From a virus (lineage: Duplodnaviria > Caudoviricetes): a DNA stretch of 40,146 nt. The position numbers were made by a program, and so were the translations under genes. Under the pieces are notes generated by a model, which saw only the letters and a program-made list of their open reading frames with translations, did not search any database and had not been told where the DNA came from. The DNA lies in IMG/VR virus record IMGVR_UViG_3300033076_000621, positions 1 to 40,146 of that record. One strand, given 5' to 3'. Positions 19,011-37,877 of the stretch are shown here, one piece after another; position 1 is the stretch's first letter; every line of letters starts with the position of its first letter.

Positions 19011-20261
19011 GTGAGCAACCAGCTTCTGACCTCCCAGGTCATCACGTATGAAACGCTTTCGGTCCTGAAGAACGATCTGCGCATCGTCAAAAACTTCTGG
19101 CGCGACGGCGACAAGGAATTTGGCAAGAAGGGCGACAAGATCGGCGACACGCTGTATGTGCGCAAGCCGCAACGCTTCATCGGCCGCGATGGTCAGGCGT
19201 ACCAGCCGGAAGGCCTTTCCGACACCCAGGTGCCCATCACGATCAACCAGCAGAGCGGCGTGGACTTCGAGTTCAGCACCGCTGAATTGTACCTGAGCAT
19301 CGACGACTTCCGGTCCCGGTACCTCGACAAAGCGGGCGAAAGCATCGCCAACAAGCTAGACCTCCGCTGCGCCCAGATGGCCGTCCTCAACACCGCGAAC
19401 AACGTTGGCACCGTGGGCACCATCCCCGGCCTGAGCGGTTCGGACGCCTTCTACATCTACAGCCAGGCGGGCCGGCTGCTGACCGAGAATGGCTTCCAGC
19501 GCAACGTGAAGCGGACCATGGCATTGACCGCTGGCGCCGAAGTTGGCTGGAACACCTACGCCAAGGCGTTCTTCAACCCGTCCGGCAAGTTGAGTGACCA
19601 GTGGGACACCGGGCAGGTGTCGAACGCCCTCGGCTACAAGTGGTTCGTTGACGAGAACCTGCCGACGCAGACCATCGGCGCCCTCGGCGGCACCCCGGCG
19701 GTTGATGGCGCGAACCAGACCGGGACCGTCATCAACCTCAAGGGCTGGACTCCCAGCGTCACGGGCGTGTTGAACGTCGGCGATGTCATCAGCTACAGCG
19801 GCGTCTACAACGTCAACCCGCAGTCGCGCCTGTCCACCGGGCAGCCGTTCCAGCAGGTCGTGCAGGCGATCGCGTCGAGCGACGGCGGCGGCCTATGCAG
19901 CGTGTCCGTCTACCCGGCCTTGGTTCCTTCCGGCCAGTATCAGAACTGCACCGGCTCCCCGGCGGATTCGGCTCTGGTCAGCGTGTACGGCGTGGCGGCG
20001 GCGGGCCAATCGGCCATCGCTGGCGTTTCCACCCGGCAGCAGTTGCTCTGGACGCCTGAGGCCTACGCCTTTATGAGCTTCCCCGGAGATGTCCCGAAGG
20101 GCGTTGACATGGGCTACTCGGCCAACGACAACTCCAGCGGCGTTTCGCTGCGGTTCGTCCGCGTCTGGGATGCGGTCCGCGATCAGTGGATCAACCGCTT
20201 CGACGTGTACTACGGCGCTTCGCCGATGTACCCCGAAGGCGGCGTTCGCGTCAACAGCTAA
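19011..20261 (+). CDS. major capsid protein, P22 gp5-like
   Basis: N.LLT..VIT.E.L, KIGDTLYVRKP, LSIDDFRSRYL, RFDVYYG; AGGAG RBS. Confidence 0.95.
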   Translation: MSNQLLTSQVITYETLSVLKNDLRIVKNFWRDGDKEFGKKGDKIGDTLYVRKPQRFIGRDGQAYQPEGLSDTQVPITINQQSGVDFEFSTAELYLSIDDFRSRYLDKAGESIANKLDLRCAQMAVLNTANNVGTVGTIPGLSGSDAFYIYSQAGRLLTENGFQRNVKRTMALTAGAEVGWNTYAKAFFNPSGKLSDQWDTGQVSNALGYKWFVDENLPTQTIGALGGTPAVDGANQTGTVINLKGWTPSVTGVLNVGDVISYSGVYNVNPQSRLSTGQPFQQVVQAIASSDGGGLCSVSVYPALVPSGQYQNCTGSPADSALVSVYGVAAAGQSAIAGVSTRQQLLWTPEAYAFMSFPGDVPKGVDMGYSANDNSSGVSLRFVRVWDAVRDQWINRFDVYYGASPMYPEGGVRVNS

Positions 20262-20266
20262 ACCTG

Positions 20267-20302
20267 CGGGGCAACTGTTTCCAAAACGGAAGCGGTTGCC
20301 CC
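20267..20302 (+). other. long hairpin after the coat gene
   Basis: GGGGCAACTGTTTCC-AAAAC-GGAAGCGGTTGCCCC, 15-bp stem with G-U pairs, no U-tract. Confidence 0.7.
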
Positions 20303-20314
20303 CATGGATCTACC

Positions 20315-20791
20315 ATGCGAACCATCATCCTCATTCTCGCCTCTGTCGCCTGCTTCGCGCAGACGGCAACCTTTATGGCGATTTCCTCGCAAACCGGAGT
20401 CACCTCTGACGCGCTGACGATTCAGCAAAACCAGAGCACGCCGGTTTACGCGCAGGGCGTCCGCGCTGTGGTCGTATCGACCACAGCCGGCACGTGCGTA
20501 ACGAAGCAAGGCGGCACGGCACCCACTGCCACCGCCACCACGATTCGCCAGACCAACGGCGCGGCTTCGTTCTCTCGCCTATCGGCCTACGCGGCTTCAA
20601 ATGTCGGCGCGGGCGTGGCCACCTCCCCGGTTTACGACCTGATCCAATCCGGAAGCTCCTATGTCCTGACCCTGGACATGACGCCCAGCGGATTCGTTGG
20701 ACCCGGCACCACCAAGAACATCACCGTCTTCTGTTCAATCAGCGCCGGTGACATTCAGATCGCCATGTATTGGAAGGAGCAACAGCAGTGA
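20315..20791 (+). CDS. signal-peptide-bearing beta-rich protein (decoration-like)
   Basis: MRTIILILASVACFA|Q; Thr/Ser-rich; 2 mature Cys. Confidence 0.8.
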   Translation: MRTIILILASVACFAQTATFMAISSQTGVTSDALTIQQNQSTPVYAQGVRAVVVSTTAGTCVTKQGGTAPTATATTIRQTNGAASFSRLSAYAASNVGAGVATSPVYDLIQSGSSYVLTLDMTPSGFVGPGTTKNITVFCSISAGDIQIAMYWKEQQQ

Positions 20792-21966
20792 ACCACCTGA
20801 AACTCTCGATTGGGCTCCTTTTCAGCCTCATGGCGTGGGGCCAGCTCACGACCACCTCCACGACACTCAGCAGCGCCGTCAACACCGTATCCAGCACTCA
20901 ATGGTGCCTGGCGTCGGCTACCGGCGTGGTCGTGCCGAACGTGGCCAGCGCCAATGGTTCGCTGCTTCTCGCCGACCGGGAAGTAGCGCAAGTCACTGGC
21001 GCCGGCACCTCGTCAACCTGTTTCAAGGTAAAGCGTGGCCAGATGGGAAGCACCGTTGCATCGCACTCGGCGGCGACGACCGTATGGGTTGGCCAACCGG
21101 CCACCTCCAGCGGCGACAGCAGCCGTCCGTTCAACGGGGCTTTCATCACGGCACTACCCACCGGCTCCTGCGTTGCGGCTGACCAGTACACCCTTCCGGT
21201 GTTGTTCGTCGGCTCGGCATCTCTCGGCGGCACACCTGGCACGCCCTACAACTGCGTGAACAGCCAGTGGGTGCCAACCGGAAACATCGTGGCGTCGAAC
21301 GTCGGCACCTCGCCGCTGTTCATCGCTGATGTTGTCGGCTCGGCCACTCCGGCGCTTATCACTCGGCGGGCGAACGGCACGCAAGCCAACCCCACAGCCA
21401 TCCAATCCGGCGACATCTTCGGCGTGTTCGGCGGGCGCGGCTACATGGACACCGGCTACAGCCCGGTTTCCCGTGCTGACGTGCAATTTTGGGCTACGGA
21501 GAATTGGACGGACACCGCCAACGGGGCGCGGATCGTCTTTGCGACCACGGCCAACGGCGCGGCGGCCCGTACCTCCCGCTGGTACATCGACCAGGACGGC
21601 GGCTTCAAGCCGTTCACGAATGGCGCTGTGGCCTTGGGCGACTCTACCCACCAGATCGCCTCGGCATCGATGGTCAACTGCACCTCTGGCGCTTCCCCGG
21701 CTGTCTGCGGGGCGTCGGCAGTGGGTGCTGTAGCGGTTGCGGCGGCGGCTACAACGCTGGTGGTGAACACCACGGCAGTTACGGCCAAGTCGCGCATTGT
21801 ATTGACCATGGATTCCAGCCTCGGCAGTGATCTTTCGGTCACCTGCAACACCTCAAACATCGCCGCGTGGGTCAGCGCCCGCACGGCTGGCACCTCGTTC
21901 ACCATCACCACGGCCAGCGGCCCGGTGACGAACCCGATGTGTCTCTCGTACCACATCTTCAACTGA
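20788..21966 (+). CDS. signal-peptide-bearing fibre/decoration-like protein
   Basis: GGAG RBS, GTG start; NHLKLSIGLLFSLMAWG|Q; fibre-like RRANGTQANPTAIQSGD..G.F.GRGY segment; 8 mature Cys. Confidence 0.85.
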   Translation: MNHLKLSIGLLFSLMAWGQLTTTSTTLSSAVNTVSSTQWCLASATGVVVPNVASANGSLLLADREVAQVTGAGTSSTCFKVKRGQMGSTVASHSAATTVWVGQPATSSGDSSRPFNGAFITALPTGSCVAADQYTLPVLFVGSASLGGTPGTPYNCVNSQWVPTGNIVASNVGTSPLFIADVVGSATPALITRRANGTQANPTAIQSGDIFGVFGGRGYMDTGYSPVSRADVQFWATENWTDTANGARIVFATTANGAAARTSRWYIDQDGGFKPFTNGAVALGDSTHQIASASMVNCTSGASPAVCGASAVGAVAVAAAATTLVVNTTAVTAKSRIVLTMDSSLGSDLSVTCNTSNIAAWVSARTAGTSFTITTASGPVTNPMCLSYHIFN

Positions 21967-21994
21967 CGGCGAAAGCCAATAAAGGAAAACAACC

Positions 21995-23035
21995 ATGCTC
22001 AAATTCTTGATTCCTCTGGTTCTTTCGGCTCTCGCCGTATTCAGCCAGCAGACCACCACTTCTACCACCCTTTCGACCGCCATTTCGGCCACCTCGCAGG
22101 CCGAATGGTGCATCGGCAGCGCCTCGGGCGTGGTCCTAAACACCACCAGCGGCAACGCCTCCTATCTGTTTGTGGACCGCGAAGCCGCGCAGATTACCAG
22201 CCAGGGAAGCACCTCGACCTGCTACAAGGTGAAACGCGCCCAACTCGGCACCAGCCAGCAGAACCACGCCGCCACCTCGAAGGTGTGGGTGGGACAGGCT
22301 GCTACCGGAACGGGCGACTCGTCCCGGCCCTTCACAGGGGCGTTTACCTCGTCGCTCCCCAGTGGCTCCTGCACGGCATCGGCGCAGTATACGCTGCCGG
22401 TGATCTACACGGGGCCGGCCAGCGGCGGCGCGTTCCCCGGTTCGGTAATCAACTGCATCGGCGGACGCTGGAGCGGGCAGGCGGATAAGACGTTTTTTGT
22501 CTCGCCGTCTGATTGCACCTTCGCGCCCACCACGTTGACGACCACCAACACGCTGACGCAGATCGGCGCGTCTTCGGTGTACGTCCTCAACGGCACTTCG
22601 AACGCCGCGGCTGGCACCAACACCCTGACCTGCAACATCGTCGTCCCGACAGCGGTTTCTGCCCTGCAAGGGGCGGTCATCACCGATATCGTCGGCTACT
22701 ACGGTTCGCAGACCACGGCGCCCACGTCGATCGGCACGGCCACGCTTGGCTCCATCTCCTTCGCCACCCCGGCGACGGGCGCTGCCGCCTCCACGGTCAC
22801 CCCGGTGTCGTTCGGCGGCACGATCACCAACACGGTTCCCACGGCGATCACCACCGTTACCACGGCTGGTTCGTTCCTCCCCATCAAGTCCTCGCTCGGC
22901 ACGCCGGTTACGCTGTCCACGGATAACCGGATTCTCGTGTACAAGCTGCCCTTCGTGCAGAGCGCGGCCGCGGCTATGACCATCAACACCCCCGGTTTGA
23001 TCGTCCACTACGCGGCTCAGACCACTTTGCCGTAG
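21995..23035 (+). CDS. signal-peptide-bearing decoration-like protein, N-terminal paralog of previous gene
   Basis: MLKFLIPLVLSALAVFS|Q; shared WC.SA.GVV, DRE.AQ.T, TC.KVKR, GDSSRPF.GAF, QYTLPV; 6 mature Cys. Confidence 0.85.
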   Translation: MLKFLIPLVLSALAVFSQQTTTSTTLSTAISATSQAEWCIGSASGVVLNTTSGNASYLFVDREAAQITSQGSTSTCYKVKRAQLGTSQQNHAATSKVWVGQAATGTGDSSRPFTGAFTSSLPSGSCTASAQYTLPVIYTGPASGGAFPGSVINCIGGRWSGQADKTFFVSPSDCTFAPTTLTTTNTLTQIGASSVYVLNGTSNAAAGTNTLTCNIVVPTAVSALQGAVITDIVGYYGSQTTAPTSIGTATLGSISFATPATGAAASTVTPVSFGGTITNTVPTAITTVTTAGSFLPIKSSLGTPVTLSTDNRILVYKLPFVQSAAAAMTINTPGLIVHYAAQTTLP

Positions 23036-23054
23036 CCACTCCGAATGCGGCCTA

Positions 23055-23084
23055 TGGGGCGGGATCACCACCGCCCCACCTTTT
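23055..23084 (+). terminator. intrinsic terminator
   Basis: TGGGGCGG-N8-CCGCCCCA-CC-TTTT. Confidence 0.6.
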
Positions 23085-23113
23085 CAACCCTCCAACCACA
23101 CATAAGGGAAATT

Positions 23114-23674
23114 ATGGCTTCTGAGCAAGAGATCACACGAGACATCCTGGCGCAGTTGAACGACAACCGGGCGACCAACGAACTCCCCCTTGGCATCGAC
23201 CAACTGGACCTGATGCGCGGCAAAAATGGCGGCTACCCCCGCGACATGTACCACGCCACCCACGCCCCCGTGCGCGTCACGAACCGGGACCAGGAAACGG
23301 CGATGGCCCAGCGCGGCTACACCCGCAACTACATCAAGCACGCCTACCCGCGAACCATCTTTCGGCGCAACCTCACCACCATCAAGCAGCGCATCGGCGA
23401 CACGAAGGAATACGAGGACGTGGCCAAGTACACGGACTTCGTGGAGACTCGCGTGGTGCTGTCGGCTGACCATGAGAAAGCATCGCTGGCGGAACGCGCC
23501 CCGCGCGGCTGTTCGGCGTGGATGACGGAGTACGCCGCCCTCCCCCCGGTCAGCGACGAAACCGCGGGCGACAAGGAAGCCGAACTCCAACGGCTGCGCG
23601 GCAAGGTCGAAGCCCTCGAAGGCACGCCGGAACCCCGGCGCCGCCGCAACCAGCACGTCGAAGCCAGCGAATAA
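23114..23674 (+). CDS. hypothetical head-region protein
   Basis: AAGGG RBS before ATG 23114; two YPR(D/T)(M/I)(Y/F) motifs. Confidence 0.75.
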   Translation: MASEQEITRDILAQLNDNRATNELPLGIDQLDLMRGKNGGYPRDMYHATHAPVRVTNRDQETAMAQRGYTRNYIKHAYPRTIFRRNLTTIKQRIGDTKEYEDVAKYTDFVETRVVLSADHEKASLAERAPRGCSAWMTEYAALPPVSDETAGDKEAELQRLRGKVEALEGTPEPRRRRNQHVEASE

Positions 23675-23689
23675 TACACAGGCGGAATC

Positions 23690-24409
23690 ATGCCCAGCCC
23701 CATCAATCTCACGACCATGGCTACCGACGCCCTCTCCTACTTGGGGGTTTTGGACGCTGGCGGCACGCCTTCGGCCACGGAATTGACCCAGGCGCTGCGG
23801 ACTGCCAACGACATGCTGGACAACATGTCGAGCGAAGAGCTCATGATTCCGTCTTTGTCCCTCGAAACGTTTGCGCTGGTGGCTGGAACGAACTCCTACA
23901 CCATCGGCACCGCGTTGACCTGGAACACGGCGCGGCCAATGGCGATTGAGGCGGCGGTCCACTATGTCACCGTCTACACCGGAACCCTCACCTCCCCGGT
24001 TCGCATCGTCAACGGCATTGAGTGGGCCAGCATCCCGAACCGCGATCAGAACTCTCCGCTCATTGAGGCGCTGTTCTACGATCGCGCAACGACGGGCGCG
24101 AAGGTCTACGTTTCGCCGATCCCCCTTGGCGGCAACATCCAGTTGACCATGTGGAAGGCACTCACGCAGTTCGCGGACGTGACCACCACGATTACCTTCC
24201 CGCCTGGCTACATCCAGCCCATCACCTACGCCCTCGCCATGGCTCTGGCGCCCCGGTACGAGGTCGCGCCCGGCGAAATCTTGGTCAAAAACTACATGGA
24301 CTCGATGGCCCGTTTGCGCAACCTGAACGCCGCGCTGCTTGGCCGCAAGCCTCCCGCCGGGCAGACCGACCCGGCCACCATTCCCCCGTCCACCATCCAG
24401 ACAAACTGA
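23690..24409 (+). CDS. head-to-tail adaptor, P22 gp4-like (copy 1)
   Basis: AL..LGVL.AG.TPS..E....L...NDMLD; SYTIG; RP..I; FPPGY. Confidence 0.8.
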   Translation: MPSPINLTTMATDALSYLGVLDAGGTPSATELTQALRTANDMLDNMSSEELMIPSLSLETFALVAGTNSYTIGTALTWNTARPMAIEAAVHYVTVYTGTLTSPVRIVNGIEWASIPNRDQNSPLIEALFYDRATTGAKVYVSPIPLGGNIQLTMWKALTQFADVTTTITFPPGYIQPITYALAMALAPRYEVAPGEILVKNYMDSMARLRNLNAALLGRKPPAGQTDPATIPPSTIQTN

Positions 24410-24410
24410 A

Positions 24411-24581
24411 ATGCTCAACTTCCTAAAAAAGCTCGTTTGTTCGCATCGAAACCTGTCGTTCTATTGCAACTTGTATGGCGACATGATCTTCCTGTCTGGC
24501 GGAAAGCGATCTTTGTGGAAATGCGACGACTGCGGAACGCTTGTGGCAAACAAAAACCTGTTCGTGGCACTTGAACAATGA
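24411..24581 (+). CDS. small Cys/His-rich protein (DUF1660-like)
   Basis: MLNFLKKLVCSH...WKCDDCG; AT-richer than flanks; fills gap between adaptors exactly. Confidence 0.65.
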   Translation: MLNFLKKLVCSHRNLSFYCNLYGDMIFLSGGKRSLWKCDDCGTLVANKNLFVALEQ

Positions 24582-25375
24582 GCATCCAAAGCTACAGCGC
24601 CGACCAAATCGCCTATCAGGCGCTCCGCGACCTTGGGGCGCTGCGGGCTGGCCAGGGGCCTTCTGTGGACGTGCTGGCGGACTGCTTCACGGCGGTCAAT
24701 CAACTCATCGACTCCTGGCTCACCGATCAGTTGCTCGTCTACGCCTACGTCCCGAACCAGTACACGCTGAACGGAACACAGATCACCTACACCATCGGGC
24801 CCACCGGTGCCGACTTCACGGCGCCGCGGCCAACCGGCATTCAAGACGCGAATATCATCTTGAACTACACATCCCCGGTGGTTCGCCAGCCGGTATCCAT
24901 CATCAATGTGGACCAGTGGGCCTCGATTCGCGTCCAGCAGTTGCAGCCGGCCATACCGCTGGTCCTCTATTACGATGCGAACTTCAATCCCACCTACGGG
25001 TATGGCTCCATCAACCTCTGGCCGGGGCCGCAAAGCTCCTACATCCTCGAAATCTACACCTGGCAGCAGTTGACGGCGTTTCCCGACCAAACCACGGCCA
25101 TCAAGTTCCCCCCGGCCTATGCGCAAGCCCTGAGGAAGTCGCTGGCCGTGTCGATCGCGCCCATGATGCTGCTGTACGGCAAGGAAAACGGCATCGTGGG
25201 CTCTGCCATCGACAAGGCTCTGCCACTGGTCCAACAACAGGCGCGGCTGGCCATGGCTGCATTGCGCTCCTACAACGCCAAGACGCCCGTGCTGGCGCTC
25301 GATCCGGCTTTTGACGGGCTGGAGAACATGAACGGGTTCAATTGGCTCACGGGCAACGCGGGGAGGGGCTGGTGA
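24578..25375 (+). CDS. head-to-tail adaptor, P22 gp4-like (copy 2)
   Basis: ALRDLGALRAGQGPS....DC...NQLIDSW; TYTIG; RP..I; FPPAY. Confidence 0.8.
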   Translation: MSIQSYSADQIAYQALRDLGALRAGQGPSVDVLADCFTAVNQLIDSWLTDQLLVYAYVPNQYTLNGTQITYTIGPTGADFTAPRPTGIQDANIILNYTSPVVRQPVSIINVDQWASIRVQQLQPAIPLVLYYDANFNPTYGYGSINLWPGPQSSYILEIYTWQQLTAFPDQTTAIKFPPAYAQALRKSLAVSIAPMMLLYGKENGIVGSAIDKALPLVQQQARLAMAALRSYNAKTPVLALDPAFDGLENMNGFNWLTGNAGRGW

Positions 25376-26844
25376 GCCTAAAAACCATCCCTGTACCCGG
25401 TTTCGGCGGTCCAACGTACCTCGCGGTGTCGCCGGTCATGGACGCCGAACGCGCCATCAACCTGTACCCGGAACCTGGCAGCGCAAATTCCAAGTCGCCG
25501 ATGTCGCTTGTTGGCCGCCCTGGCCTGTCATCCCCGTTCTGCACGCTTGCCAACACCCCCATCCGCCCCGGCGGATTGTGGGCTGGGGATTCCAGGCTGT
25601 TTGCGGTTGGTGGCACTCACTTCTACGAGATTTCGAGCGTTGGCGCGATCATCACCGACTACGGGGCCATGGGCGGGACCAACGTAGGGCCGGTCCAAAT
25701 CAGCGCGAACGGCACGCAACTGCTGGTGATGAACTCGGCCGACAACACCATCTATAACGCCGATCCGGCTGGCCCGGTGATGACTTCGGTGTTTGCTGGG
25801 CGGGCGCTGGAATACCTCGACGGATTCTACATCGCCTTGGACTCGTCCGCGGCAAACAAGCTCAACGTCTCAGCATATCTCGATGGCACCACCTGGAACG
25901 CATTGGACACCGTGGAGCGCACCGGGAGTGCCGATCGCTGCGTGCAACTTGCCGTCCTCAACGGGCAGTTGTGGATCTTCGGCCAGCAAACCACCGAAGT
26001 CTGGTACAACGCAGGCAACCCGCTGTTTCCGTTCGCCCGCGTACCCGGTGCCACCCTGAACTTCGGCTGTGTCGCCCCGTGGTCGGTGGTCAAGTTCTAC
26101 AACACGATCATGTGGCTGGGCTGCGATACGACCGGCTGCGTTCAAGTCTACATGACGCAGGGCATCAACCCGGTTCGAGTCTCCACGTGGGCCATCGAGA
26201 ACATGATTTGCGGGATCACTGCGGCAGCGCCGGAAGGCAACATCTCCGAACTGGAGTTCGCCAGCGCCTACGGGTACCAGGAGAACGGCCACACCTTCTA
26301 CGTCCTCACGATGAAGACGTCCCACGCAGCGCCCACTGCCACCTACGTCTACGACCTCACCACTGGCCTCTGGCACGAGCGCGACTACCTGGGAGTCTAC
26401 CCGATTTGTTTTGCCTCGGTGCCGGGGTTTTCGTTCAACACGGCCGGGGCCTTCTTCGTCGGTGACGCGCTGACGGGCAAGATCTGCCACCAGAGCCAAG
26501 GCTACCCGTCCGACGCCGGGACCGCTATCACCTACACCCGCACCTTCCCCACGGCCAGCGACCGGCAACACCAGATCCGGTATCCACTCCTTCAGCTCGA
26601 CGCCGACATGGGGACCGCGACGGCATCGCTGGAGTGGTCGAACGACGGCGGCAAGACGTTCCCCTTCTCCCGCGCCGCCATTTCTCCATCGGCTGAAACC
26701 TCGCAGGGCAACGCGCCGCGGTATATGTGGCGGCAGTTGGGCATGGGGCGGCAGCGGACGTTTCGCATCAAGACGACGAGCAGCACGGAACTGGTGCGCT
26801 ACGTCAACGCCTACATGGGCGTGTCGGCGGGGACTGAGCAATGA
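25372..26844 (+). CDS. tail hub / packaged-DNA stabilisation protein, P22 gp10-like
   Basis: INLYPE, RPGL, YLDGFYI, FGQQTTEVWYN, YQENGHTFYVL, YDLTTGLWHER, WSNDGG, WRQLG..R.R.F. Confidence 0.92.
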   Translation: MSLKTIPVPGFGGPTYLAVSPVMDAERAINLYPEPGSANSKSPMSLVGRPGLSSPFCTLANTPIRPGGLWAGDSRLFAVGGTHFYEISSVGAIITDYGAMGGTNVGPVQISANGTQLLVMNSADNTIYNADPAGPVMTSVFAGRALEYLDGFYIALDSSAANKLNVSAYLDGTTWNALDTVERTGSADRCVQLAVLNGQLWIFGQQTTEVWYNAGNPLFPFARVPGATLNFGCVAPWSVVKFYNTIMWLGCDTTGCVQVYMTQGINPVRVSTWAIENMICGITAAAPEGNISELEFASAYGYQENGHTFYVLTMKTSHAAPTATYVYDLTTGLWHERDYLGVYPICFASVPGFSFNTAGAFFVGDALTGKICHQSQGYPSDAGTAITYTRTFPTASDRQHQIRYPLLQLDADMGTATASLEWSNDGGKTFPFSRAAISPSAETSQGNAPRYMWRQLGMGRQRTFRIKTTSSTELVRYVNAYMGVSAGTEQ

Positions 26845-27779
26845 TTTCGCCTAACGTCAACTTCGGCTTGGCACCGCTTCAGTCGCCCATAACGGACGGC
26901 AGCGCGGAGCAGACGGGTATTCCGTTTCAATCCCGCGCCACCAACCCGGTTCCGGCTGGCGTGCTGAACCAAGCGTGGCAAGGCTGGTTCAACCAGTTGG
27001 GCAAGCTCGTGAAGCAGTTGCCGACCATCTCCGACGTGGCGGCAAACATGGTGCCAAGCGGCGGCGGTGCGGCGGTGACCGACTGGACGCCTGACGCCTG
27101 GAAACAGTTCGCCTATTACCAGACCGACACGGGCCTCCTCTACATTTCAATGATCGTGGTGGACACGTGGGAATGGGTGTACGCGGCTGGCGCGATGACC
27201 GTGGCCCTGCTGTCCGACCTGCCGTCAACCTTCGGTGTGAACGACGCCGGGGCCATCGTCTACGAGCTTGAGTTTCATCACGCCTACCAGTGGACCGGGA
27301 GCGCGTGGCGGTTCCTGCCGGGCGACCCCGGCGCCGGCTACATCATCGCCACCGTCAGCGGAGCGCCCATCGGTGGGGCGTGGGCGCTGTGCGATGGCAC
27401 GGCGGCGGACATCTCCCAAGGTGACGGGACGAAGGTATCGACCACCACGCCAAACCTGATGACGCGGGGGCTTGGGGGAGGCCCGGTGCTCATCGGCGGC
27501 GGTGGAACCGGGTTCCAAGCGGCCACCACGCCTCAATGGCAGACCGGGGCGAAGACGGACGACGAGTCCACCCACACCCACCCGCTGACCAATGCGACGG
27601 TTCAGAGCGGGGCCGGGGCCACTGTGGCGGCGGCGGGAAGCACGGGGGCAGGCACGGCGCACAATCACGGGCTATCGGACGCCAACGCCAAGCTGAAGGC
27701 CCCCAGCGATGGTTCAAATGCGACACACGGAGGCGGTATGCCGGACAGATTCTTCCTTGAATGGTACGTGAGGCAATAA
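26841..27779 (+). CDS. tail needle/short fibre with collar-like motif
   Basis: After hub; AWQGWF N-terminal motif; WALCDG...TPNL, HTH, HNH. Confidence 0.7.
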   Translation: MISPNVNFGLAPLQSPITDGSAEQTGIPFQSRATNPVPAGVLNQAWQGWFNQLGKLVKQLPTISDVAANMVPSGGGAAVTDWTPDAWKQFAYYQTDTGLLYISMIVVDTWEWVYAAGAMTVALLSDLPSTFGVNDAGAIVYELEFHHAYQWTGSAWRFLPGDPGAGYIIATVSGAPIGGAWALCDGTAADISQGDGTKVSTTTPNLMTRGLGGGPVLIGGGGTGFQAATTPQWQTGAKTDDESTHTHPLTNATVQSGAGATVAAAGSTGAGTAHNHGLSDANAKLKAPSDGSNATHGGGMPDRFFLEWYVRQ

Positions 27780-28840
27780 TGGCATCAGCAATACTTCCCT
27801 TTATCGGACCAACGACCAGCCTCCTGAGTTCCATTCTCGGGTTTGGCTCGGCGGGCAGCGCGGCGAACCAGATCAGCGCGGCGAACCAAGCGGCCATGAG
27901 TGGCGTCTTGGGCGCTTCGGCCAACGGGCAGGCTGGCGTCAGCAACGCGGCCAACCTCGGCATTCAAGGCGTCGAGAACGCCAGCCAAACCGGGCAAGCG
28001 GGCGTCAATGATGCCTTTGCCACCGGCTCCAACAACCTCAACGCGGCGGGCGGGACGGCCATCAACGCCGTCAACAACGCTACCGGGCAGGCCAACACCA
28101 CGCTGGCCGACATGCTCGGCACGCAGACGGCCGCCATCAACCCGTATTTGACGGCGGGGCAGACCGGGCTGACGAACCTGCAAAACATCGCCAACGGCCC
28201 TGGCTTTTCGTTCAACTACGACGACTACAAGAACGATCCGGCGTTCCAGTTCCAGATGGAGCAGGGGCAGCGGGCCATCCAGAACAGCGGTTCCGCCCGC
28301 GGCCTCGGTTCATCCGGCGCAATTCTGAAGGAGTTGCAGAACTTCGGCACCGGGCTTGCTGCCACGCACTACGGCGAAGCATTCAACCGGGCGCGTGACA
28401 CCTTCGGCCTCAACCAGAACGCCAACCTCGCCAACAACACGGCGCTCATCAACGCCGGGACCACTGGGCTGGGGCAGTTCAACGCGGCACAGGCCAATGC
28501 CGGCAACCAGATCGCCGCGAACACTATCGGCGCGGGCAAGTACGAAGGCGACACGACCACCAACATCGCCTCTTTGCTGGCTTCGCTCGGCCTCGACGCC
28601 TCCAAGTTCAACAGCCAGACCGGATTGACCGGGGCGCTGGCGAACAGCACCACCGGGCTACAGTCGGCACTCGCAAACAGCGCCACGGGGCTCAACGCGG
28701 CCAACAGCGCGGGCAACTTTGCCGTCGGCGGTGCCAATGCGCGGGCATCCGGCACGCTGGGCCAAAGTTCGGCACTTGGCGAGGGTATCGCTAGCCTTGG
28801 CGATATTCTTTCCGCGTACCTCGGGAAAGGGAAACCGTAA
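27779..28840 (+). CDS. DNA ejection protein (gp7-like)
   Basis: Gly/Ala/Asn/Gln-rich; NPYLTAG, DPAFQFQMEQG, SARGL..SGA.LKEL. Confidence 0.85.
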   Translation: MASAILPFIGPTTSLLSSILGFGSAGSAANQISAANQAAMSGVLGASANGQAGVSNAANLGIQGVENASQTGQAGVNDAFATGSNNLNAAGGTAINAVNNATGQANTTLADMLGTQTAAINPYLTAGQTGLTNLQNIANGPGFSFNYDDYKNDPAFQFQMEQGQRAIQNSGSARGLGSSGAILKELQNFGTGLAATHYGEAFNRARDTFGLNQNANLANNTALINAGTTGLGQFNAAQANAGNQIAANTIGAGKYEGDTTTNIASLLASLGLDASKFNSQTGLTGALANSTTGLQSALANSATGLNAANSAGNFAVGGANARASGTLGQSSALGEGIASLGDILSAYLGKGKP

Positions 28841-30324: not shown

Positions 30325-32264
30325 TGGCTGACTACGAGATCACTACCCCGGACGGGAAGAAATACCGCATCTCGATGAACGCTCCGATGGACGCCCGCAC
30401 GCCGCCATTCGTCGCGCCCGGTGTCGGCGCCGGCGGCCACGTTCCCGGCACGCCTTGGACGAAGGAACAGGAACGCGCCGTCTCTGGTGATCCTGAGGAG
30501 CGCTCTTGGTGGGACACCGCCGCGTCTGTCGGCACCGGGGTGTTGAACGCCGCTAAGGGCGTGGTGGACATGGGAAAGCGCGTTGTAGCCGGGCCGCAGG
30601 GCGTTGACGAGGAGATTCTGACCGCCCTCGCTGGTCCCCTTGGCCCACTCATCAAGGATACGGTGCTGGGCCATATTCAAGTGGCGAAGAAAGCCAAAGA
30701 GGAAATCGGCAAGGGCGACTATGCCGCGGGGGTTCCGCGGGCGGTTTTGGCCGCGGCCCCCGTTGTTGGCCCCATCGCTTCCGGCATCGCCGACAAGATG
30801 AGCGAGACGGACGCCGAAGGCCGTCCCCGCCCCGGCGCATTCGCCGAAGGTGTCGGCGAACTGGTGGCGAACGTCGCCGCCCCGGAAGCCATGCGGAAAG
30901 CCGCAACCGTGGTACCCGGTGGTCTGCGCCCGTCCAACCCGGTGACGCGGGCGGCCATGGAGTTCAAGGACGCCAACGGCATCCCCTCCTCGATGCGCAC
31001 GGCTACTGGCTCCCCGTTCATCGGCTACGCTCAGGCGGCGGCCGATCTCACGCCCATCGGTGCCATGGTGTCAGAAGGTGCGCGGCGGGCAGAAGTCGAA
31101 GGCTTTAAGCGAGTCGGCGGCGAGTTGGCCGAGAAAATCGACCCCGGCGCACCAGCCACGCCGGAATCGGCTGGACTCGCCATCCAGAAGGAACTGGCAT
31201 CCCGCGAGAACATGCTCGGCCAGTCGGCGGGCGGCGAGTACGGACGCTGGCGGCAGACGATGGAATCCCCGGCGGCAGAGCGCATGGTGCCGGTCAACGG
31301 GCAAATGACCATCATGAACGCACCGGTTGACATCTCCGCCATGAAACCGCGCATCGCGCCCATTGTGGAAGAGTTGCAGCTCATGCCCGCTGCCGAACGC
31401 TCGGCCATGCGCGGATACTCGGCGATGCGGCAGATCCTCGACGGCCCCGACCACGTTCCGGCCACTACGGCAGAGATTGCCCTCGGCGAGTTCAAGCGGA
31501 TGGCGCGGGAGGAAACCGGCCGCAATCAGGGTTTGGCCAAGCAACTGGTAAAGGAGTTCCAGCCGATTGTTGACGCCGCGGTGAAGGACGTGGACCCGGC
31601 AGCGCTGACGGCTTTGGAACAGGCCCGCGCACTGACCGCCAGGCAGATGGAAGTGAAAGGCGTGTCGCGGGGCGTGCGGGAGGAACCCGTACAAGCCTAC
31701 GGCCAGATGATCTACGCCAAGGACGCCGGAATTGAAAACCTGAAGCGCGTCATCAATGAGGCTCCAGCCGCCGCGCCAAAGATCGCCCGCGCTTGGCTGG
31801 AAGACGCGCTGTCGAAGGCCGAGTATGAGGGCGGCTTTGACAAGCTCGACGGGCTTCACGCCAAATGGCGAGACATGGGACCGGAGACGAAGCGCATCCT
31901 GTTTAAGAATCCGGCGCTCATCAAGGATATCGGCGACTTTTTCCAAGCCGCGAAGGACAGCGCCAAAGACATGAATCCAAGCGGTTCCGGCAAGCTCATC
32001 TCCGTTGGCGGACAACTCACCTACATCTTCACCGAACCCACCACGGGAATCCCGCTGGCTATCGGCGCGGGGGCATTATCAAAACTGATGCACTCGCCGT
32101 CCGTCGTGCGGGCGCTGACGCAGGGGATGAAGGTAAATCCGGCGGACGTAGGGGCGGCGACATCGGCGGCAATGAAGATTCGGGTGCTGACGAAGGACGT
32201 GGCGGTGCCGCTCGATAAAGTCGCCGGTAAAGACCAAGACCGAGAGCGGGAGGCAAAGCGATGA
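30324..32264 (+). CDS. DNA ejection protein (gp16-like by position)
   Basis: MADYEITTPDGKKY start; Ala/Gly-rich helical; NPSGSG motif. Confidence 0.7.
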   Translation: MADYEITTPDGKKYRISMNAPMDARTPPFVAPGVGAGGHVPGTPWTKEQERAVSGDPEERSWWDTAASVGTGVLNAAKGVVDMGKRVVAGPQGVDEEILTALAGPLGPLIKDTVLGHIQVAKKAKEEIGKGDYAAGVPRAVLAAAPVVGPIASGIADKMSETDAEGRPRPGAFAEGVGELVANVAAPEAMRKAATVVPGGLRPSNPVTRAAMEFKDANGIPSSMRTATGSPFIGYAQAAADLTPIGAMVSEGARRAEVEGFKRVGGELAEKIDPGAPATPESAGLAIQKELASRENMLGQSAGGEYGRWRQTMESPAAERMVPVNGQMTIMNAPVDISAMKPRIAPIVEELQLMPAAERSAMRGYSAMRQILDGPDHVPATTAEIALGEFKRMAREETGRNQGLAKQLVKEFQPIVDAAVKDVDPAALTALEQARALTARQMEVKGVSRGVREEPVQAYGQMIYAKDAGIENLKRVINEAPAAAPKIARAWLEDALSKAEYEGGFDKLDGLHAKWRDMGPETKRILFKNPALIKDIGDFFQAAKDSAKDMNPSGSGKLISVGGQLTYIFTEPTTGIPLAIGAGALSKLMHSPSVVRALTQGMKVNPADVGAATSAAMKIRVLTKDVAVPLDKVAGKDQDREREAKR

Positions 32265-32388
32265 GCCACGGCACCGCCAGCAACCACGCACCTTTGGCCG
32301 CAAGCGGCATTCCTGAGGTGGCAATGGCATACGAAGCGAGACACGCAAACCATGCCGACGACACCGCAAGCCAGAAACCAACCAGCAC
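32059..32388 (-). CDS. antisense two-TM membrane protein, probably leaderless
   Basis: GTG 6 nt after TATCCT; VLVGFWLAVSSAWFACLASYAIA...AWLLAVPWLIALPPALGLGLYRR. Confidence 0.6.
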   Translation of the reverse strand: MLVGFWLAVSSAWFACLASYAIATSGMPLAAKGAWLLAVPWLIALPPALGLGLYRRLYRAAPPRPSSAPESSLPPMSPPLRPPDLPSSPASAPARRTASASVLIMPPRR

Positions 32389-32404
32389 ATTAGAAGGATA
32401 CCTT

Positions 32405-32788
32405 ATGTCACAACTCCAAGCGCCCAACAAGGCCGACAACATCATCATCGCCGACGCCGCCAAGTTCTGCGCCAAGCTGAACGCGCTCGGCTTCCGCCTT
32501 GGCCCGCTGCACATCAACGAGACGGTGAGCGGAGAAACCCTGGCCAACATCGCCCCCATCGAGGCTTTCGAGGGGCTGGAAGCCGACAAACCGTACAACG
32601 TGGTGGTTTGGGCCGGCGGCGACTGGCACAACGTGGCGCAACTCGTCCGTATGTGGGGCGAAGGCACGGCGCAGGACTTCCGCGAGGTCTACACCGACAT
32701 CTACCCCGGCAAGGACGCCAACGCGGGCCTTCTGAACATTGCCGGCGCCACCAAGGCCATTGAAAAGCTGATTGAGAAGGCGGCCTGA
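32405..32788 (+). CDS. hypothetical protein heading the lysis-like cluster
   Basis: GAAGGA RBS before ATG 32405; GC3-rich codons. Confidence 0.75.
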   Translation: MSQLQAPNKADNIIIADAAKFCAKLNALGFRLGPLHINETVSGETLANIAPIEAFEGLEADKPYNVVVWAGGDWHNVAQLVRMWGEGTAQDFREVYTDIYPGKDANAGLLNIAGATKAIEKLIEKAA

Positions 32789-32789
32789 T

Positions 32790-33020
32790 ATGAACTGGAA
32801 AGCACTCTTTGAAGGACTCGCGGCGGCTGCGATCGGCGGCGCCGCGACCGGTGGCGCAACAGCCTTGGGCGATGGGCCGGTGAGCATCAAGCACATCGGC
32901 GCGGCTGCGGCGGCTGGCGCTCTCGTCGGCATCTCGGCGTATTTCAAGCAGAATGCGCTGAAGCCCAAGCCGCAGCCGCAGCAAGCCGACCCGCCGCCCG
33001 ATCCCGGCCCGCAGGGATAG
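32790..33020 (+). CDS. holin-like small membrane protein
   Basis: Two Ala/Gly-rich hydrophobic segments, AYFKQ, charged Pro-rich tail. Confidence 0.65.
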   Translation: MNWKALFEGLAAAAIGGAATGGATALGDGPVSIKHIGAAAAAGALVGISAYFKQNALKPKPQPQQADPPPDPGPQG

Positions 33021-33048
33021 CAGTTCATTTCAACCCATGGGAGGGTCA

Positions 33049-33378
33049 ATGACCCCTGACGATTGGAAAGCACTTGGAGAGGCCCTGACGTACCTGCTGG
33101 TTGGCGCCGGGAGCCTCTTCACGGTCCAGAAAGTTCAATCCAAACGCTCGGGCTCGTCGAAGCCGGATGACACCCACGAGCTCGTCGTAGCGGTGGGCAG
33201 GATTGAGGAGAAGTTAGACCGCAAGTTGGGAGAAGTGCGAGAGATTCGCGTGCAAGTCGAGGGGCTGGCAGAGGATCTTCAGCGACAAGGCCAGAGCATC
33301 AACCGGCTGTCGTCGGGCTTCCGTGAAGTAGTTGGCCGAGTGGATGCCCTGGAATCTCGAATGCAGCGGCCCATATGA
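33049..33378 (+). CDS. membrane-anchored coiled-coil protein (holin/antiholin-like)
   Basis: GGAGG RBS; one N-terminal TM followed by heptads. Confidence 0.6.
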   Translation: MTPDDWKALGEALTYLLVGAGSLFTVQKVQSKRSGSSKPDDTHELVVAVGRIEEKLDRKLGEVREIRVQVEGLAEDLQRQGQSINRLSSGFREVVGRVDALESRMQRPI

Positions 33379-33952
33379 GGTAGAGCAGTGAGCAGGCGGC
33401 GTAACTGGCATCATTCGCCGCCTGCCAGATCCCGACAGGGGAAGCCATGCGAAGGATTGCAGAAGCGCCCATGACAGAACAAAGCAGAAACAGCAGAACA
33501 ACGTGAAAGTCGATCAAACCTGACCGCCGATAGCCAACAGACCACATCAGCATCATGTACACGCCGAGAAAAGCCGCCAATCCGACAATCACCACCCGCC
33601 GCGCCTGTATGGCGCTGTGCAGCACATCGGCCGCGGCGAACCGCCAGGCGATCACCGCGGCGAACAGCAGCGCCAAGAACAGCGCCGAAGCCGCGATCAT
33701 CCGGCGTTGCCGGAACCCGCGAGAGGACACCACAAAGCTCTCAGCGACGGCCAGCGCACGGCAGGCCAGCAACGGCGTGATGAGCCATGGGTACCAAGAT
33801 TTCAACCACGCCAGAGAGTACGGCTGGTACGCAACCTCAAAGGATATCGCGGCTCCCGTCGCCAGCGTGAACAGCGGAAGCCGGCGAACGAATCCCGACC
33901 GTATCAACTGCACCAAGCAAACTACCATCGAAACCAAGTACACGAGGTCCAC
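33299..33952 (-). CDS. polytopic (~6-7 TM) membrane protein, antisense, probably leaderless
   Basis: Perfect TATAAT 6 nt before GTG 33952; successive hydrophobic segments. Confidence 0.8.
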   Translation of the reverse strand: MDLVYLVSMVVCLVQLIRSGFVRRLPLFTLATGAAISFEVAYQPYSLAWLKSWYPWLITPLLACRALAVAESFVVSSRGFRQRRMIAASALFLALLFAAVIAWRFAAADVLHSAIQARRVVIVGLAAFLGVYMMLMWSVGYRRSGLIDFHVVLLFLLCSVMGASAILRMASPVGIWQAANDASYAACSLLYLIWAAAFEIPGHPLGQLLHGSPTTAG

Positions 33953-34975
33953 ATGTTCATTATAAAGCGTTTTCTGCCCATCATCCTTGCCGTGTCGGCA
34001 TGGGCGCAATACCCGGTACCAGGAACCACAGGGGGCGGCGGGGGCGGTAGTGGCTGCACGGCAGGCACGGGCATCACTTGCTCTGGCTCGACCATCAACG
34101 TCGATACCGCCGTGATCCAGTCTCGCGCTACGGCGCAGGCTGGAACTTCAACATATTGCCGGTCGGCCACCGGAAACGACACCTACACCTGCGCCCTTAC
34201 GCCGACGCTTACCGCCTATACGACTGGCATGTGCTTGGCCGTAAACCCAGATACCGCAAACACTGGAGCGGCGACAATTAACGTGGATGCACTCGGCGCA
34301 AAAAACATCCTCACGCGGTCGCTCGCCACGCTCAGCGACGGCGACCTCCCAGCCAACATCAACACCACACTCTGCTACGACGGGACGCAGTTTGTGCCAC
34401 CCTCTAGCGGCGGATCGCTGGCTACACTGACACAGATATGGTGTCCGTTCGGCAACTGCTACAACAACGCCACGGATCGAATCTTCTATTCAACTGCCGA
34501 CCGAGTGTACATGTTTCGATTCACCATGGACCGAACTCGCAACGTGCGCGTTATGGGCGCTCCAGTCTTTCCTTGGAGTGGTGGCGTGGACAACCTGGTG
34601 ATGGGTATTTATAGCGGCGACGGTAGCACCCTGGTGGCGTCCTGTAACACCACCGCCACGGCGGTCAACCCGTCCGGCGCGGCCCCGCTTTGCCGGTTTT
34701 CCTCCACGGTCGCGCTGGCGATGGATACCGAGTACGTGTTGGCCGTCGCCAGCGATACGACCACGGTTGGCATGTATTGTTCCGCGAACACCTACGAGTG
34801 GAATCAATGGTTCGGCGCACAGCCGACCTGGTTTCCTAACTCGCGCGCGATTGCCGGATACGGCGCAAACACGGCGACGAGTTCCGGTGCTACTTATGCG
34901 TTGCCGTCTACTACTGGGGCAATGACCGCATCCAGCATTGGCTGCTTTCCGCAGATGATTTTTCTTCCTCAGTAA
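33953..34975 (+). CDS. signal-peptide-bearing tail-fibre-like protein
   Basis: MFIIKRFLPIILAVSAWA|Q; fibre motif NTGAATINVDALGAKNI..L.DGDL..YDGTQF; 12 mature Cys. Confidence 0.85.
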   Translation: MFIIKRFLPIILAVSAWAQYPVPGTTGGGGGGSGCTAGTGITCSGSTINVDTAVIQSRATAQAGTSTYCRSATGNDTYTCALTPTLTAYTTGMCLAVNPDTANTGAATINVDALGAKNILTRSLATLSDGDLPANINTTLCYDGTQFVPPSSGGSLATLTQIWCPFGNCYNNATDRIFYSTADRVYMFRFTMDRTRNVRVMGAPVFPWSGGVDNLVMGIYSGDGSTLVASCNTTATAVNPSGAAPLCRFSSTVALAMDTEYVLAVASDTTTVGMYCSANTYEWNQWFGAQPTWFPNSRAIAGYGANTATSSGATYALPSTTGAMTASSIGCFPQMIFLPQ

Positions 34976-34976
34976 C

Positions 34977-37877
34977 ATGCGATCACTCATTCTCTGTTTG
35001 CTATCGATAGTCCCAGCGTGGGCGCTACAAAACGGCGACTTCAGCGGAAGCAACTATCTCTCGTTCACTGGGCCGTCTACATCGCTCACTGACTACCGGA
35101 TTGAGTTCAGACTGAGCGGCTTTGCTGCGGCGGGTACGCAGGGAGTCATGGGAAATAATGGGTCAAGCGGGCCGCACTGCTTTCTGGTCAGTGGGACGAC
35201 GGACCTTCGGTGTCGTGATTTCACAGGGGCAGGTGACCATGTGACGATCTCGCTGTCGGGTCGAACTGACGTGCGTGTGCGCTTCCAGCGGTTTTACAGC
35301 ACTGGCGTTCGCTTGCTGGAGATTTGGAACTCAGACGGTACGAACTACACCTCGTCTTCGATCACTAACGCCGTGGCAACCATTTCCTTCGGTAATACGC
35401 AGTATGTCGGGGCCTACTTCGGCGCTGGTTCTGAATGCGATTGCGTGATTGGCTTTGCCAGATGGTGGACGAGTACGATCACTGCTGGATCGTCGGCACC
35501 ACCGGACACTTTGCTTCTCGGCTACGCCAATCTCGTGGATTTGGAGTTGGAAGGCAACACCGACGACAGCGGACCAAGCGCGGTCACGGTCACAACCACT
35601 GGCGGCGCTCTATCCTACACCACGACCGTTCTCTACCCGCCTTCCGCCGCGATCACGTCGAGCGGCGCGGCTCGGGCTGGGGCCACTTACGCGCTATCCG
35701 GGGTGTCGTCGTCAAACCTCACAACGGACTCGCCGTTGTTGTATTTCTGGCAGTCAACAGTGTGGACCACCGCCGCGCCGACGTTCTCCAGCCGTACCAC
35801 ATCGACGACTAATGTGACCATTCCAACTGCACAGACGGCGACGATTCTGCTGCGGGTGACGGATGGCATCGGACAGGTAGGCACAACTACAACCACACTG
35901 GGGTCGGTCGCAACAGATAGCACCTCGGTTGTTATAGGCACAGATTCCACACTAGCTTCTGTACTCGGTGTAAACCTACGCAGTGGCGCGGCTCTGTGGA
36001 CGTGGTTCGATCTCAAGGAAAAGGCGATCGCCGACGCGCTCATTGCCACCATCCCAGAGGCCCCAGGCGACACACCAGCGGCAGGCACACTCACGCTCAC
36101 TTCTGGAAGTGCTGCGGTGACGGGCAGTGGCACCTCGTTTCTATCCACTTTTTCGTGCAATGGGACCGATATCGTGGTGGTTCTCTACCCGCTGGCAGTC
36201 GGCACGGGACGGCGGGCATACACGGTTAGTTCATGCGCTTCAGATACGGCAATGACGCTGGCGACGGTCTACGACGCACCGTCTTCCCCATCGTCCCCGT
36301 CAGGCGTCCAGTACCAGCAGATGAGCACGGATACTTCCGCTTCCTGGGTGAACGGGTCTAACAATTGGAACTACTATGACGCGGTGGTGGCCTTCTACCG
36401 GCTGTACTACCGGACGGGCGACACCACGTATCGAGACGCCGCCCGTTCCTTAGCCGACAAATGGTGGAAATACCCGTATGACGGTGGGCGGGCGTGGGAG
36501 TACGGCGACGGAGCCTATCAACTCAACCCGCGCATTGCTGCTGGCTTTGGATTGATGTTGCGGGCGAATGATGGGAAGAGTGAGTATTGGCCCGGTATTT
36601 TAAATCAGGTCACGGCGCAGTACGCGAGCTGGCTTAGCGGCTACTACCCTTTCCAGCCAAACCAAGGCATCGGTGAAATTCGTGAACAGGGCTACGCCTT
36701 TCTGTACACCCAAGCACTCTCCATGCTGCACCCAAATGGAGCCACACGCACGACATGGGCGGCTAACGCGGCGCTGGCTAGAGATTACTTTATCGCCAAT
36801 CAGACAGCTTATGGCGGATGGAAGTTTGAATTGGGCGCGAATCAAAATTACTACGGCGCTGGCAATTTCCCTTGGCAGGGCTTTGCGCTCATGCAGGCGC
36901 TCAGGCTGAATTACGAGGCCACCGGCAGCAGTGCCGCGAAGGCGTCCCTGAAGGCATACGTCGACTACCTGCTAGTTGAAGGCATTGACCCGACCAACGA
37001 CGGCGGGTTCTACGAGGACAGCTACTTCACGTTCTGCCCTGACTACGCGGCTGAAAAGACCGGAACGGTCACGGCAACCAACGGTAGCACCACGGTTACT
37101 GGCAGCAGCACTTTATTCCAAACTCAGTACGCTTGCAACGGCACTGATACGATCGCCATTCAGGACTCGACTGGGTTCAGGCGCGGATACACCGTGGCGT
37201 CCTGCTCCTCGCAAACGGCCATGACTCTCGCGGCCACCTACGCCGGATCGACGGAGAGCGGGCTTCGCATCCTGCAATACGCGGGCGCCGGCACAACGCC
37301 GCCTTCGGCCTGCCATGTTTCCTATGGCACAGCACCATCGGATGTGAGCGCGGCGCGGACGCTTTTGAACGGCATCCACTGGGGCCTTGGGTGGGCGTAC
37401 ACCGAGTACGGGACGCCATCATACTTGACTGATGGGGATGTTCTATTCGGACAGAACTTAGGCCTGGGCGGCCCGGATAACGACGGAATCGTTGGCCACT
37501 ATGCGGATGTGGTCAGCGGAGGTTCCGCGCCGTCCTACCTCGCCCAGACGTATCTATCCAAGGAATACGCCTTCGTTGGCGGAGCGCCTGGGTCGCAAGG
37601 GTATTTGGCATGGCGCGTGGGGGGCGGGGTGCCGCTCTCAACAACAAGCATCACTGTTACGGTCAAGCGGTCGGCTGTGCCTACTGCCACCAAGGTGCGC
37701 GTGACGATCACCCAGCCATCTGGCGCGACGGCGACCAACACATGCGCGGCGGATACCTGCACCGTCAGCGGCATTGACACCCGGCAAGGATCGCGGGCGC
37801 TGATGCGCCTGGAGTACCTCTCCGCTGGCGATGTTGTGCTGGCCGTGAGCGACCAGCAGTCAGTTCCAATCGCATAG
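34977..37877 (+). CDS. large signal-peptide-bearing modular protein (ConA/LamG-like, PKD-like, two fibre-type modules, aromatic helical domain)
   Basis: MRSLILCLLSIVPAWA|LQ; LELEGNTDDSG; YFWQ..LRVTD; YRLYYRTGDTTYRDAAR; 12 mature Cys. Confidence 0.8.
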   Translation: MRSLILCLLSIVPAWALQNGDFSGSNYLSFTGPSTSLTDYRIEFRLSGFAAAGTQGVMGNNGSSGPHCFLVSGTTDLRCRDFTGAGDHVTISLSGRTDVRVRFQRFYSTGVRLLEIWNSDGTNYTSSSITNAVATISFGNTQYVGAYFGAGSECDCVIGFARWWTSTITAGSSAPPDTLLLGYANLVDLELEGNTDDSGPSAVTVTTTGGALSYTTTVLYPPSAAITSSGAARAGATYALSGVSSSNLTTDSPLLYFWQSTVWTTAAPTFSSRTTSTTNVTIPTAQTATILLRVTDGIGQVGTTTTTLGSVATDSTSVVIGTDSTLASVLGVNLRSGAALWTWFDLKEKAIADALIATIPEAPGDTPAAGTLTLTSGSAAVTGSGTSFLSTFSCNGTDIVVVLYPLAVGTGRRAYTVSSCASDTAMTLATVYDAPSSPSSPSGVQYQQMSTDTSASWVNGSNNWNYYDAVVAFYRLYYRTGDTTYRDAARSLADKWWKYPYDGGRAWEYGDGAYQLNPRIAAGFGLMLRANDGKSEYWPGILNQVTAQYASWLSGYYPFQPNQGIGEIREQGYAFLYTQALSMLHPNGATRTTWAANAALARDYFIANQTAYGGWKFELGANQNYYGAGNFPWQGFALMQALRLNYEATGSSAAKASLKAYVDYLLVEGIDPTNDGGFYEDSYFTFCPDYAAEKTGTVTATNGSTTVTGSSTLFQTQYACNGTDTIAIQDSTGFRRGYTVASCSSQTAMTLAATYAGSTESGLRILQYAGAGTTPPSACHVSYGTAPSDVSAARTLLNGIHWGLGWAYTEYGTPSYLTDGDVLFGQNLGLGGPDNDGIVGHYADVVSGGSAPSYLAQTYLSKEYAFVGGAPGSQGYLAWRVGGGVPLSTTSITVTVKRSAVPTATKVRVTITQPSGATATNTCAADTCTVSGIDTRQGSRALMRLEYLSAGDVVLAVSDQQSVPIA

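Follow-up and report, generated by a model that had tools for sequence, protein, structure and literature searches.

In the textbook view, the particles of tailed phages are assembled wholly in the cytoplasm and their proteins have no export signals; both the P22-type tailspikes and the decoration protein Dec are leaderless cytoplasmic proteins. P22, epsilon34, Sf6 and phage L with Dec share the gene order terminase, portal, scaffold, coat, adaptor, hub and ejection proteins with the DNA analysed here, the IMG/VR virus record IMGVR_UViG_3300033076_000621 (40,146 bases), the whole of which is called the window below. According to the available text of PMC2629481, the tailspike gene of P22-like phages comes after a moron-like slot, which is the position taken by SP4 and SP5 in the window, and the N-terminus of Dec is leaderless. 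SP1 to SP5 are five late genes of the window (Table 1) that appear to encode proteins with secretory leaders. With a probability of roughly 0.6, these five late proteins are proposed to be exported, cleaved and disulfide-folded in the periplasm, upon which at least SP3 and SP2 would dock on finished particles at lysis. Profile searches recovered terminase, P22 portal, scaffold, P22 coat, two adaptor paralogues, hub and ejection genes in P22 order (matches to PF16510, E 3e-130; PF11651, E 4e-25; phrog_8865, phrog_578 and phrog_598), a gene set by which the window is classed as a P22-like podophage, that is, one with a short tail.

An earlier note on this DNA had pointed out five genes with export signals, covering about 6.6 kb, and had proposed that their products are added to particles after folding in the periplasm. 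The five open reading frames (ORFs) were found at the positions it had given and amount to 6,621 bases, and their N-termini read as it had described, with one or two basic residues, a hydrophobic core and the sites CFA/Q, AWG/Q, VFS/Q, AWA/Q and AWA/L (the slash marks the cleavage point). All five combine the features of Sec substrates cleaved by signal peptidase I: a basic n-region, a hydrophobic h-region, small residues at -3 and -1, and no lipobox. The leaders were called by a home-made heuristic and by eye, not by SignalP, and the cleavage rule of the heuristic favours Gln at +1, so that a count of Gln at that position is circular. Applied to 25 proteins of the window, the heuristic flagged the five SP proteins, an ejection protein encoded at 27761 and a reverse-strand membrane protein. 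The coat, portal, scaffold, both adaptors, the hub, the 701-residue spike and a 312-residue fibre-like protein were unflagged, in agreement with the earlier claim that the core of the virion is leaderless.

Shine-Dalgarno-like words precede the starts at 20788, 21995 and 33953, and the start at 34977 lies one base past the stop of the gene at 33953. Upstream of the start at 20315 only GGA is present, yet five relatives begin at the same place. The reading frames of 20315, 20788 and 33953 stay open further upstream; homologues nonetheless begin at the leader. Nor is there a conserved Met just behind any leader. The hydrophobic N-termini might still be membrane anchors, miscalled starts or remnants of host genes in a phage that assembles in the cytoplasm, for which the longer upstream frames of three genes, the use of a heuristic instead of SignalP and its flagging of an ejection protein could be adduced. 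Such an explanation is most improbable in view of the small-residue sites that stand before a conserved mature start in more than 100 homologues and of the cysteine (Cys) pairs that accompany leaders within one shared module.

Conservation of the signals was followed in homologues, using the same heuristic. A leader is present in 112 of the 120 SP3 homologues listed from a total of 135, and the eight without a leader call consist of seven N-terminal fragments and one over-long start call. Leaders were also found in 33 of 37 homologues of SP5 and in 49 of the 78 carriers of the SP4 module (residues 59-145). Among the SP3 homologues the sequence of the leader is free to vary and the start of the mature protein is conserved; the signals are kept in character, not in sequence. 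The number of Cys residues is even in all five mature proteins (2, 8, 6, 12 and 12), as it is in most leader-bearing homologues of SP3 (110/112), of SP5 (27/33) and of the SP4 module (46/49). Across the 100 aligned rows, residues C39 and C76 of SP3 are both present in 43, both absent in 56 and split in a single one, and the variable Cys residues of SP4 and SP5 likewise occur as pairs. The SP4 module is shared with tail fibres that have no leader, PB1 gp46 and RR1-B among them, and has Cys pairs added. At least two Cys residues are located in the module of 46 of the 47 leader-bearing carriers as against 8 of the 33 others, and seven of those eight proved to be leader-bearing or truncated when inspected by eye. 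Across 93 loci, with one open frame omitted, the same holds for 21/31 leader-bearing and 4/61 other modules; the two sets overlap in part and their related sequences are not independent. This distribution is the one expected for periplasmic disulfide folding. As the leaders are conserved and the Cys residues are even in number and co-vary, export and oxidative folding are strongly supported: the five proteins would almost certainly leave the cytoplasm through Sec, be cleaved by signal peptidase I and acquire disulfides from host enzymes. Of the earlier proposal, export and folding in the periplasm are borne out by the leaders and the Cys co-variation; the addition to particles is a matter of indirect argument.

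The five genes form two groups, namely the coat-linked SP3 and SP2, with SP1, and the pair SP4-SP5. The codon usage of the gene at 21995 resembles that of other late genes, and the GC content at third codon positions is lower in the genes at 33953 and 34977 and in the spike gene.

The model of SP3 (pLDDT 87) consists of a small N-terminal β-domain, a Cys-paired linker domain and a C-terminal jelly roll like those of carbohydrate-binding modules (CBMs; best Z 11.4, root-mean-square deviation (rmsd) 2.9 over 127). The profile of the N-terminal domain matches the phage tail-tip chains 8vjh (E 3e-5) and 8rk3 (E 0.004), and also leaderless tail and sheath proteins of bacterial genomes. The corresponding domain of SP2 (first 160 residues) is 53% identical to it. 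Further on in SP2, residues 213-287 match phrog_24159 (E 3e-8), the middle part resembles tail fibres, among which the T5 L-shaped fibre (E 0.003) and Klebsiella phage fibres, and a C-terminal stretch is K1-lyase_C-like, below the cut-off. SP1 is confined to close relatives. The homologies of these proteins to tail fibres and to domains of tail tips uphold the fibre or appendage character that had been attributed to them; their attachment to the virion is what we infer. GenBank phages yielded no match for SP3 or SP5, and neither did a first scan of the genome collection with the SP3 alignment. With SP3, the ESM Atlas returned only unnamed clusters below 0.9, and a BFVD search with the SP3 model gave mixed partial matches to phage proteins, none of them assignable.

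SP3 homologues occur at 44 loci (a few of them duplicates), 14 of which are too short upstream. In the 30 informative loci the coat gene is directly upstream in 22, SP1 and SP2 are located in between in five, and only the jelly-roll part is present, in other phage types, in three. Adjacency to the coat gene is thus seen in 27 of the 30, with coat identities as low as 29%. In close relatives, SP3 is 87-90% identical, as compared to 88-92% for the portal and 58-70% for the spike. The SP3 jelly roll has a single match among the 401 genomes searched from the probable host class, and this match lies inside a prophage and has a leader. Because of the coat adjacency, the portal-like conservation and the single chromosomal match in a prophage, SP3 is seen to behave like a core gene of the phage that is linked to the capsid. 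The genes after the coat gene in five GenBank relatives (EBPR podovirus 1, PBR31, VvAW1, MW202520 and PAE2) are leaderless and not homologous to SP3. SP3 would quite probably be a head appendage displaying its glycan-binding jelly roll, with SP2 displaying a fibre-type tip on an N-terminal domain of the SP3 type and SP1 serving as a small accessory of this head-side group. The exported proteins could alternatively meet the particle outside the cell, on the surface of the next host or in the lysate, and act as loosely bound helper adhesins. The export evidence is the same for both, and modular lectin-type tips and exchange of the cassette among unrelated phage lineages would suit such adhesins; the degree of conservation of SP3 relative to portal and spike suits a fixed contact with the coat instead, which makes meeting outside the cell improbable. 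Stand-alone, leader-bearing SP3 jelly rolls were observed two genes past a capsid-position gene at two loci (L026:9797-10585 and L027:7725-8513) of phages with a gene order resembling that of Tunturi 1, a phage discussed below. In one close relative, about 700 additional bases separate the SP2 and SP3 homologues (L005:9284-10001).

Docking of exported proteins on particles at lysis gains support from the SP3-coat gene order, from the spike of a related prophage and from annotations of Cellulophaga phages. The prophage, L206, was found in the probable host family, on a contig of 446 kb; its gene plan is the same, with a coat protein 39% identical to that of the window. In its spike (L206:4804-6714, minus strand; G211:C6), a leader is followed by a head-binding domain (7eeq, 9vyg; E 3e-7) and an Sf6-like neck, and this is the single spike gene in the 20 kb examined. 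Two other contigs binned to the family carry a gene with an SP2/SP3-type N-terminal domain past the coat gene, with a visible leader in one of them. In the Cellulophaga phages phi10:1 (gp091-094) and phi18:3 (gp085-087), proteins with N-terminal leaders are annotated in GenBank as structural by tandem mass spectrometry. Leaders were seen by eye in gp12, gp13, gp14, gp16 and gp17 of Tunturi 1 (PP887698), which are encoded after the adaptor gene, gp15 being doubtful. Tunturi 1 gp12-14 and gp17 contain 10-32 Cys residues; gp14 is annotated as a tail spike and gp17 as a virion structural protein. The main text of PMC11924767 makes no mention of a signal peptide or of mass spectrometry, and in Tunturi 3 and 4 no leaders were present in the late proteins checked.

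SP4 matches phrog_4900 over residues 60-144 (E 1e-10). The model of SP5 (pLDDT 89) contains a LamG-like lectin domain (Z 20.4), a PKD domain, an (alpha/alpha)6 barrel and a C-terminal β-sandwich. The barrel (residues 338-886; Z 20.4, rmsd 3.8 over 320) is like that of sugar epimerases, hydrolases and lyases; the candidates GH76, GH88/105, AGE and PL26 tie at 8-12% identity, so that the match holds at the level of the fold only. Two β-domains inserted in the barrel match tail-fibre families (phrog_17834, E 4e-14). Several unrelated types of phage have homologues of SP4 and SP5, located in clusters of genes with leaders. Of the 301 genomes searched from the probable host family, 29 contain full-length chromosomal homologues of SP5 (E <= 1e-20); in another class of Acidobacteriota partial matches were obtained in 3/151 genomes, and in the phylum of a Chitinophagales metagenome-assembled genome (MAG) in 0/201. 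Inspection of six chromosomal SP5 loci revealed an SP4-module gene upstream in five and flanking glycosyltransferase, flippase, ABC or O-antigen-ligase genes in five, and no phage gene was recognised in the six. In a tree of SP5 (49 sequences, 393 columns, FastTree, midpoint root), the copies from phages are interspersed with those from chromosomes; most of its rows are of unknown context, and it does not give the direction of transfer. Leader-bearing genes on chromosomes, with a phage tail-fibre module and an SP5-like barrel, were noted in polysaccharide biosynthesis loci of the probable host family (L190/L191 of genome G232, and L192-L196), and G232 and G594 contain two SP5-like genes each.

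Findings of this kind suit an explanation in which all five proteins are exported and never join the particle. They would instead be lectins and glycanases in the periplasm, at the surface or in released form, and would loosen the sugar coat of the host for the release of progeny, take away or cover receptors, or serve as decoys. The SP5 homologues in the host family, paired with the SP4 module amid polysaccharide genes, and the sugar-enzyme barrel speak for such roles, as do the lack of a recognised endolysin in the window and the presence of a leaderless spike. The adjacency of SP3 to the coat gene would be left unexplained, as would the lack of a full-length chromosomal non-phage SP3 in the 401 class genomes, with the best match in a prophage, and the leader before a head-binding domain in the related prophage. 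For the set of five this explanation is rather unlikely. For SP4 and SP5 a non-virion role has about even odds, since homologues of full length are found on chromosomes, in polysaccharide loci of the host. Placed where P22 has its tailspike, they would be a fibre and a lectin or glycan-cleaving enzyme, and it is possible, at slightly less than even odds, that these join the tail or other appendages; otherwise they would be free and act on the sugar coat of the host. The five had been treated as one set in the earlier note; SP4 and SP5 also occur paired in host loci.

Several points weigh against docking on finished particles. Homologue counts are non-independent observations. No known particle-binding domain was recognised in any of the five proteins, whole-model structure searches with SP3 were filled by CBM jelly rolls and matched no solved decoration protein, and no leaderless full-length SP3 homologue was found. 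Prophage L206 is without an SP3-like gene after its coat gene, and SP4/SP5-like pairs occur in host polysaccharide loci without phage genes. The leader-bearing Cellulophaga proteins are not homologous to the five, and co-purification is possible in those preparations. With a leaderless spike-like gene retained, exported receptor-binding parts may be unneeded.

In vitro, the P22 tailspike attaches to heads that are already complete, as do several decoration proteins, and late addition would therefore be mechanically plausible. The leaderless core (coat, portal, adaptors, hub, ejection proteins and 701-residue spike) would be assembled in the cytoplasm as usual, and lysis would mix the compartments, so that the exported parts meet finished particles; the coat protein may then be the binding partner of SP2 and SP3. 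The balance tips slightly towards a general picture in which tailed phages of Acidobacteriota assemble in two compartments, with disulfide-stabilised appendages and fibres snapping on at lysis and a fibre-glycanase cassette exchanged with host polysaccharide loci.

Table 1 Positions of the five leader-bearing genes and of neighbouring elements in the window
Feature	Coordinates	Strand	Leader	Remarks
SP1	20315..20791	+	20315-20359	158 aa; mature part 2 Cys; no family or fold match
SP2	20788..21966	+	20788-20841	392 aa; 8 Cys
SP3	21995..23035	+	21995-22045	346 aa; 6 Cys
SP4	33953..34975	+	33953-34006	340 aa; 12 Cys
SP5	34977..37877	+	34977-35024	966 aa; mature part 12 Cys
P22-type coat protein	19011..20261	+	leaderless	
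GC-rich hairpin between coat and SP1	20268..20302	+		z -6.0
701-aa spike-like protein	15945..18050	+	leaderless	portal-scaffold interval; no family or PDB match
Two adaptor paralogues	23690..25375	+	leaderless	
Tail hub (head closure Hc3)	25342..26844	+	leaderless	
312-aa protein	26841..27779	+	leaderless	fibre/needle position; no family match
209-aa multi-pass membrane-type ORF	33299..33928	-		just before SP4; moron slot of P22-like phages; no family match

The label of spike for the 701-residue protein rests on its composition and position alone. Profile searches gave no match to the head-binding domain of gp9-type tailspikes in this protein, in SP4 or in SP5, and the slot at the end of the late operon, which holds a leaderless tailspike in P22-like phages, is here filled by the leader-bearing SP4 and SP5. 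Two Acidobacteriota genomes contained no match to the reverse-strand membrane ORF before them. After the coat stop codon, the hairpin of the window is replaced in three relatives by a different one that has a short U run, and the hairpin of the window likely lowers the expression of the downstream genes.

CheckV estimated the completeness of the record at 63%. Both ends of the window are in the same short tandem repeat within one gene, because of which it is probably a near-complete, circularly permuted genome. The gene that spans the contig break (39714-40146 and 1-239) combines a DUF7666-like N-terminal domain with tandem 8-residue Gly/Ala/Thr repeats. No endolysin, integrase or repressor was recognised among the queries from the window (60 ORFs against PHROGs, 25 against Pfam and 14 against NCBIfam). 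Homologues of the coat protein were found in 5 of the 301 genomes of the host-candidate family, that of a 'Solibacteraceae' MAG; together with the 29/301 genomes with homologues of the 34977 gene they indicate that the host is probably a member of the Bryobacteraceae (Acidobacteriota). Many genomes of the class (L199 of G010 and others) carry a phage-tail-type protein of near-constant length (1,300-1,380 aa), which suggests a widespread domesticated tail or gene-transfer element. Elsewhere in the window, a gene for a GroES-like co-chaperonin (13265-13702), retained in close relatives, is located between terminase and portal, and a 743-aa helicase-methyltransferase fusion is encoded at 1741-3972. 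The ORFs at 32772-33020 and 33037-33378 look like small membrane proteins, the start of that at 13140-13328 resembles a lipobox, and the ORF at 32261-32788 is unassigned. A search of the ESM Atlas with the ORF at 32294 gave no match.

If exported parts do join the particle, lysis would be an assembly step, the Sec and disulfide machineries of the host would be dependencies of the phage, and the rule that a signal peptide marks a non-virion protein would not hold for a large group of phages from soil and fresh water. If confirmed, this would be an assembly route new for tailed phages. The window adds a head-side case, in which the gene stays beside that of the coat, and a link to host polysaccharide loci. 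As Tunturi 1 has been cultured and carries an analogous cassette, the question of the particle can be answered.

A paper on exported virion proteins of tailed phages was not found in the openly accessible literature searched; the passages of PMC3556154 deal with lysis genes only. In comparison with P22-like phages, the five late proteins of the window have leaders and paired Cys residues, and none of them matches P22 gp9 or Dec by profile. Tunturi 1 is, according to the available text of PMC11924767, a cultured Acidobacteriota podovirus of Tunturiibacter. Its leader-bearing cassette is analogous to that of the window, with a different capsid lineage and no homology to the five proteins. Cellulophaga phages phi10:1 and phi18:3 have a Bacteroidota host, and their leader-bearing proteins contain few Cys residues (0-3). 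Residues of SP2 match PDB entries 8oml and 8on4 (E 1e-8), which we take to be entries of MAT fibres. MATs are surface proteins of bacteria, whereas the window proteins are encoded by phage late genes, SP2 beside the coat gene. In the MAT fibres of Bdellovibrio bacteriovorus, which are phage-fibre-like, a signal peptide is followed by a conserved β-rich domain, as described in the available part of PMC10769870. The exported glycanases of polysaccharide loci offer a further comparison, since loci of this kind contain SP5 homologues in the probable host family, with the sugar-enzyme barrel; the pair of the window differs in being part of a phage late operon and in having tail-fibre modules. In the filamentous phage M13, pIII and pVIII are virion proteins with cleavable leaders, and pIII is disulfide-bonded. 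These coat proteins do not leave the inner membrane, and no lysis accompanies the extrusion of the particle. Unlike M13, the phage of the window has a portal-and-terminase head built in the cytoplasm.

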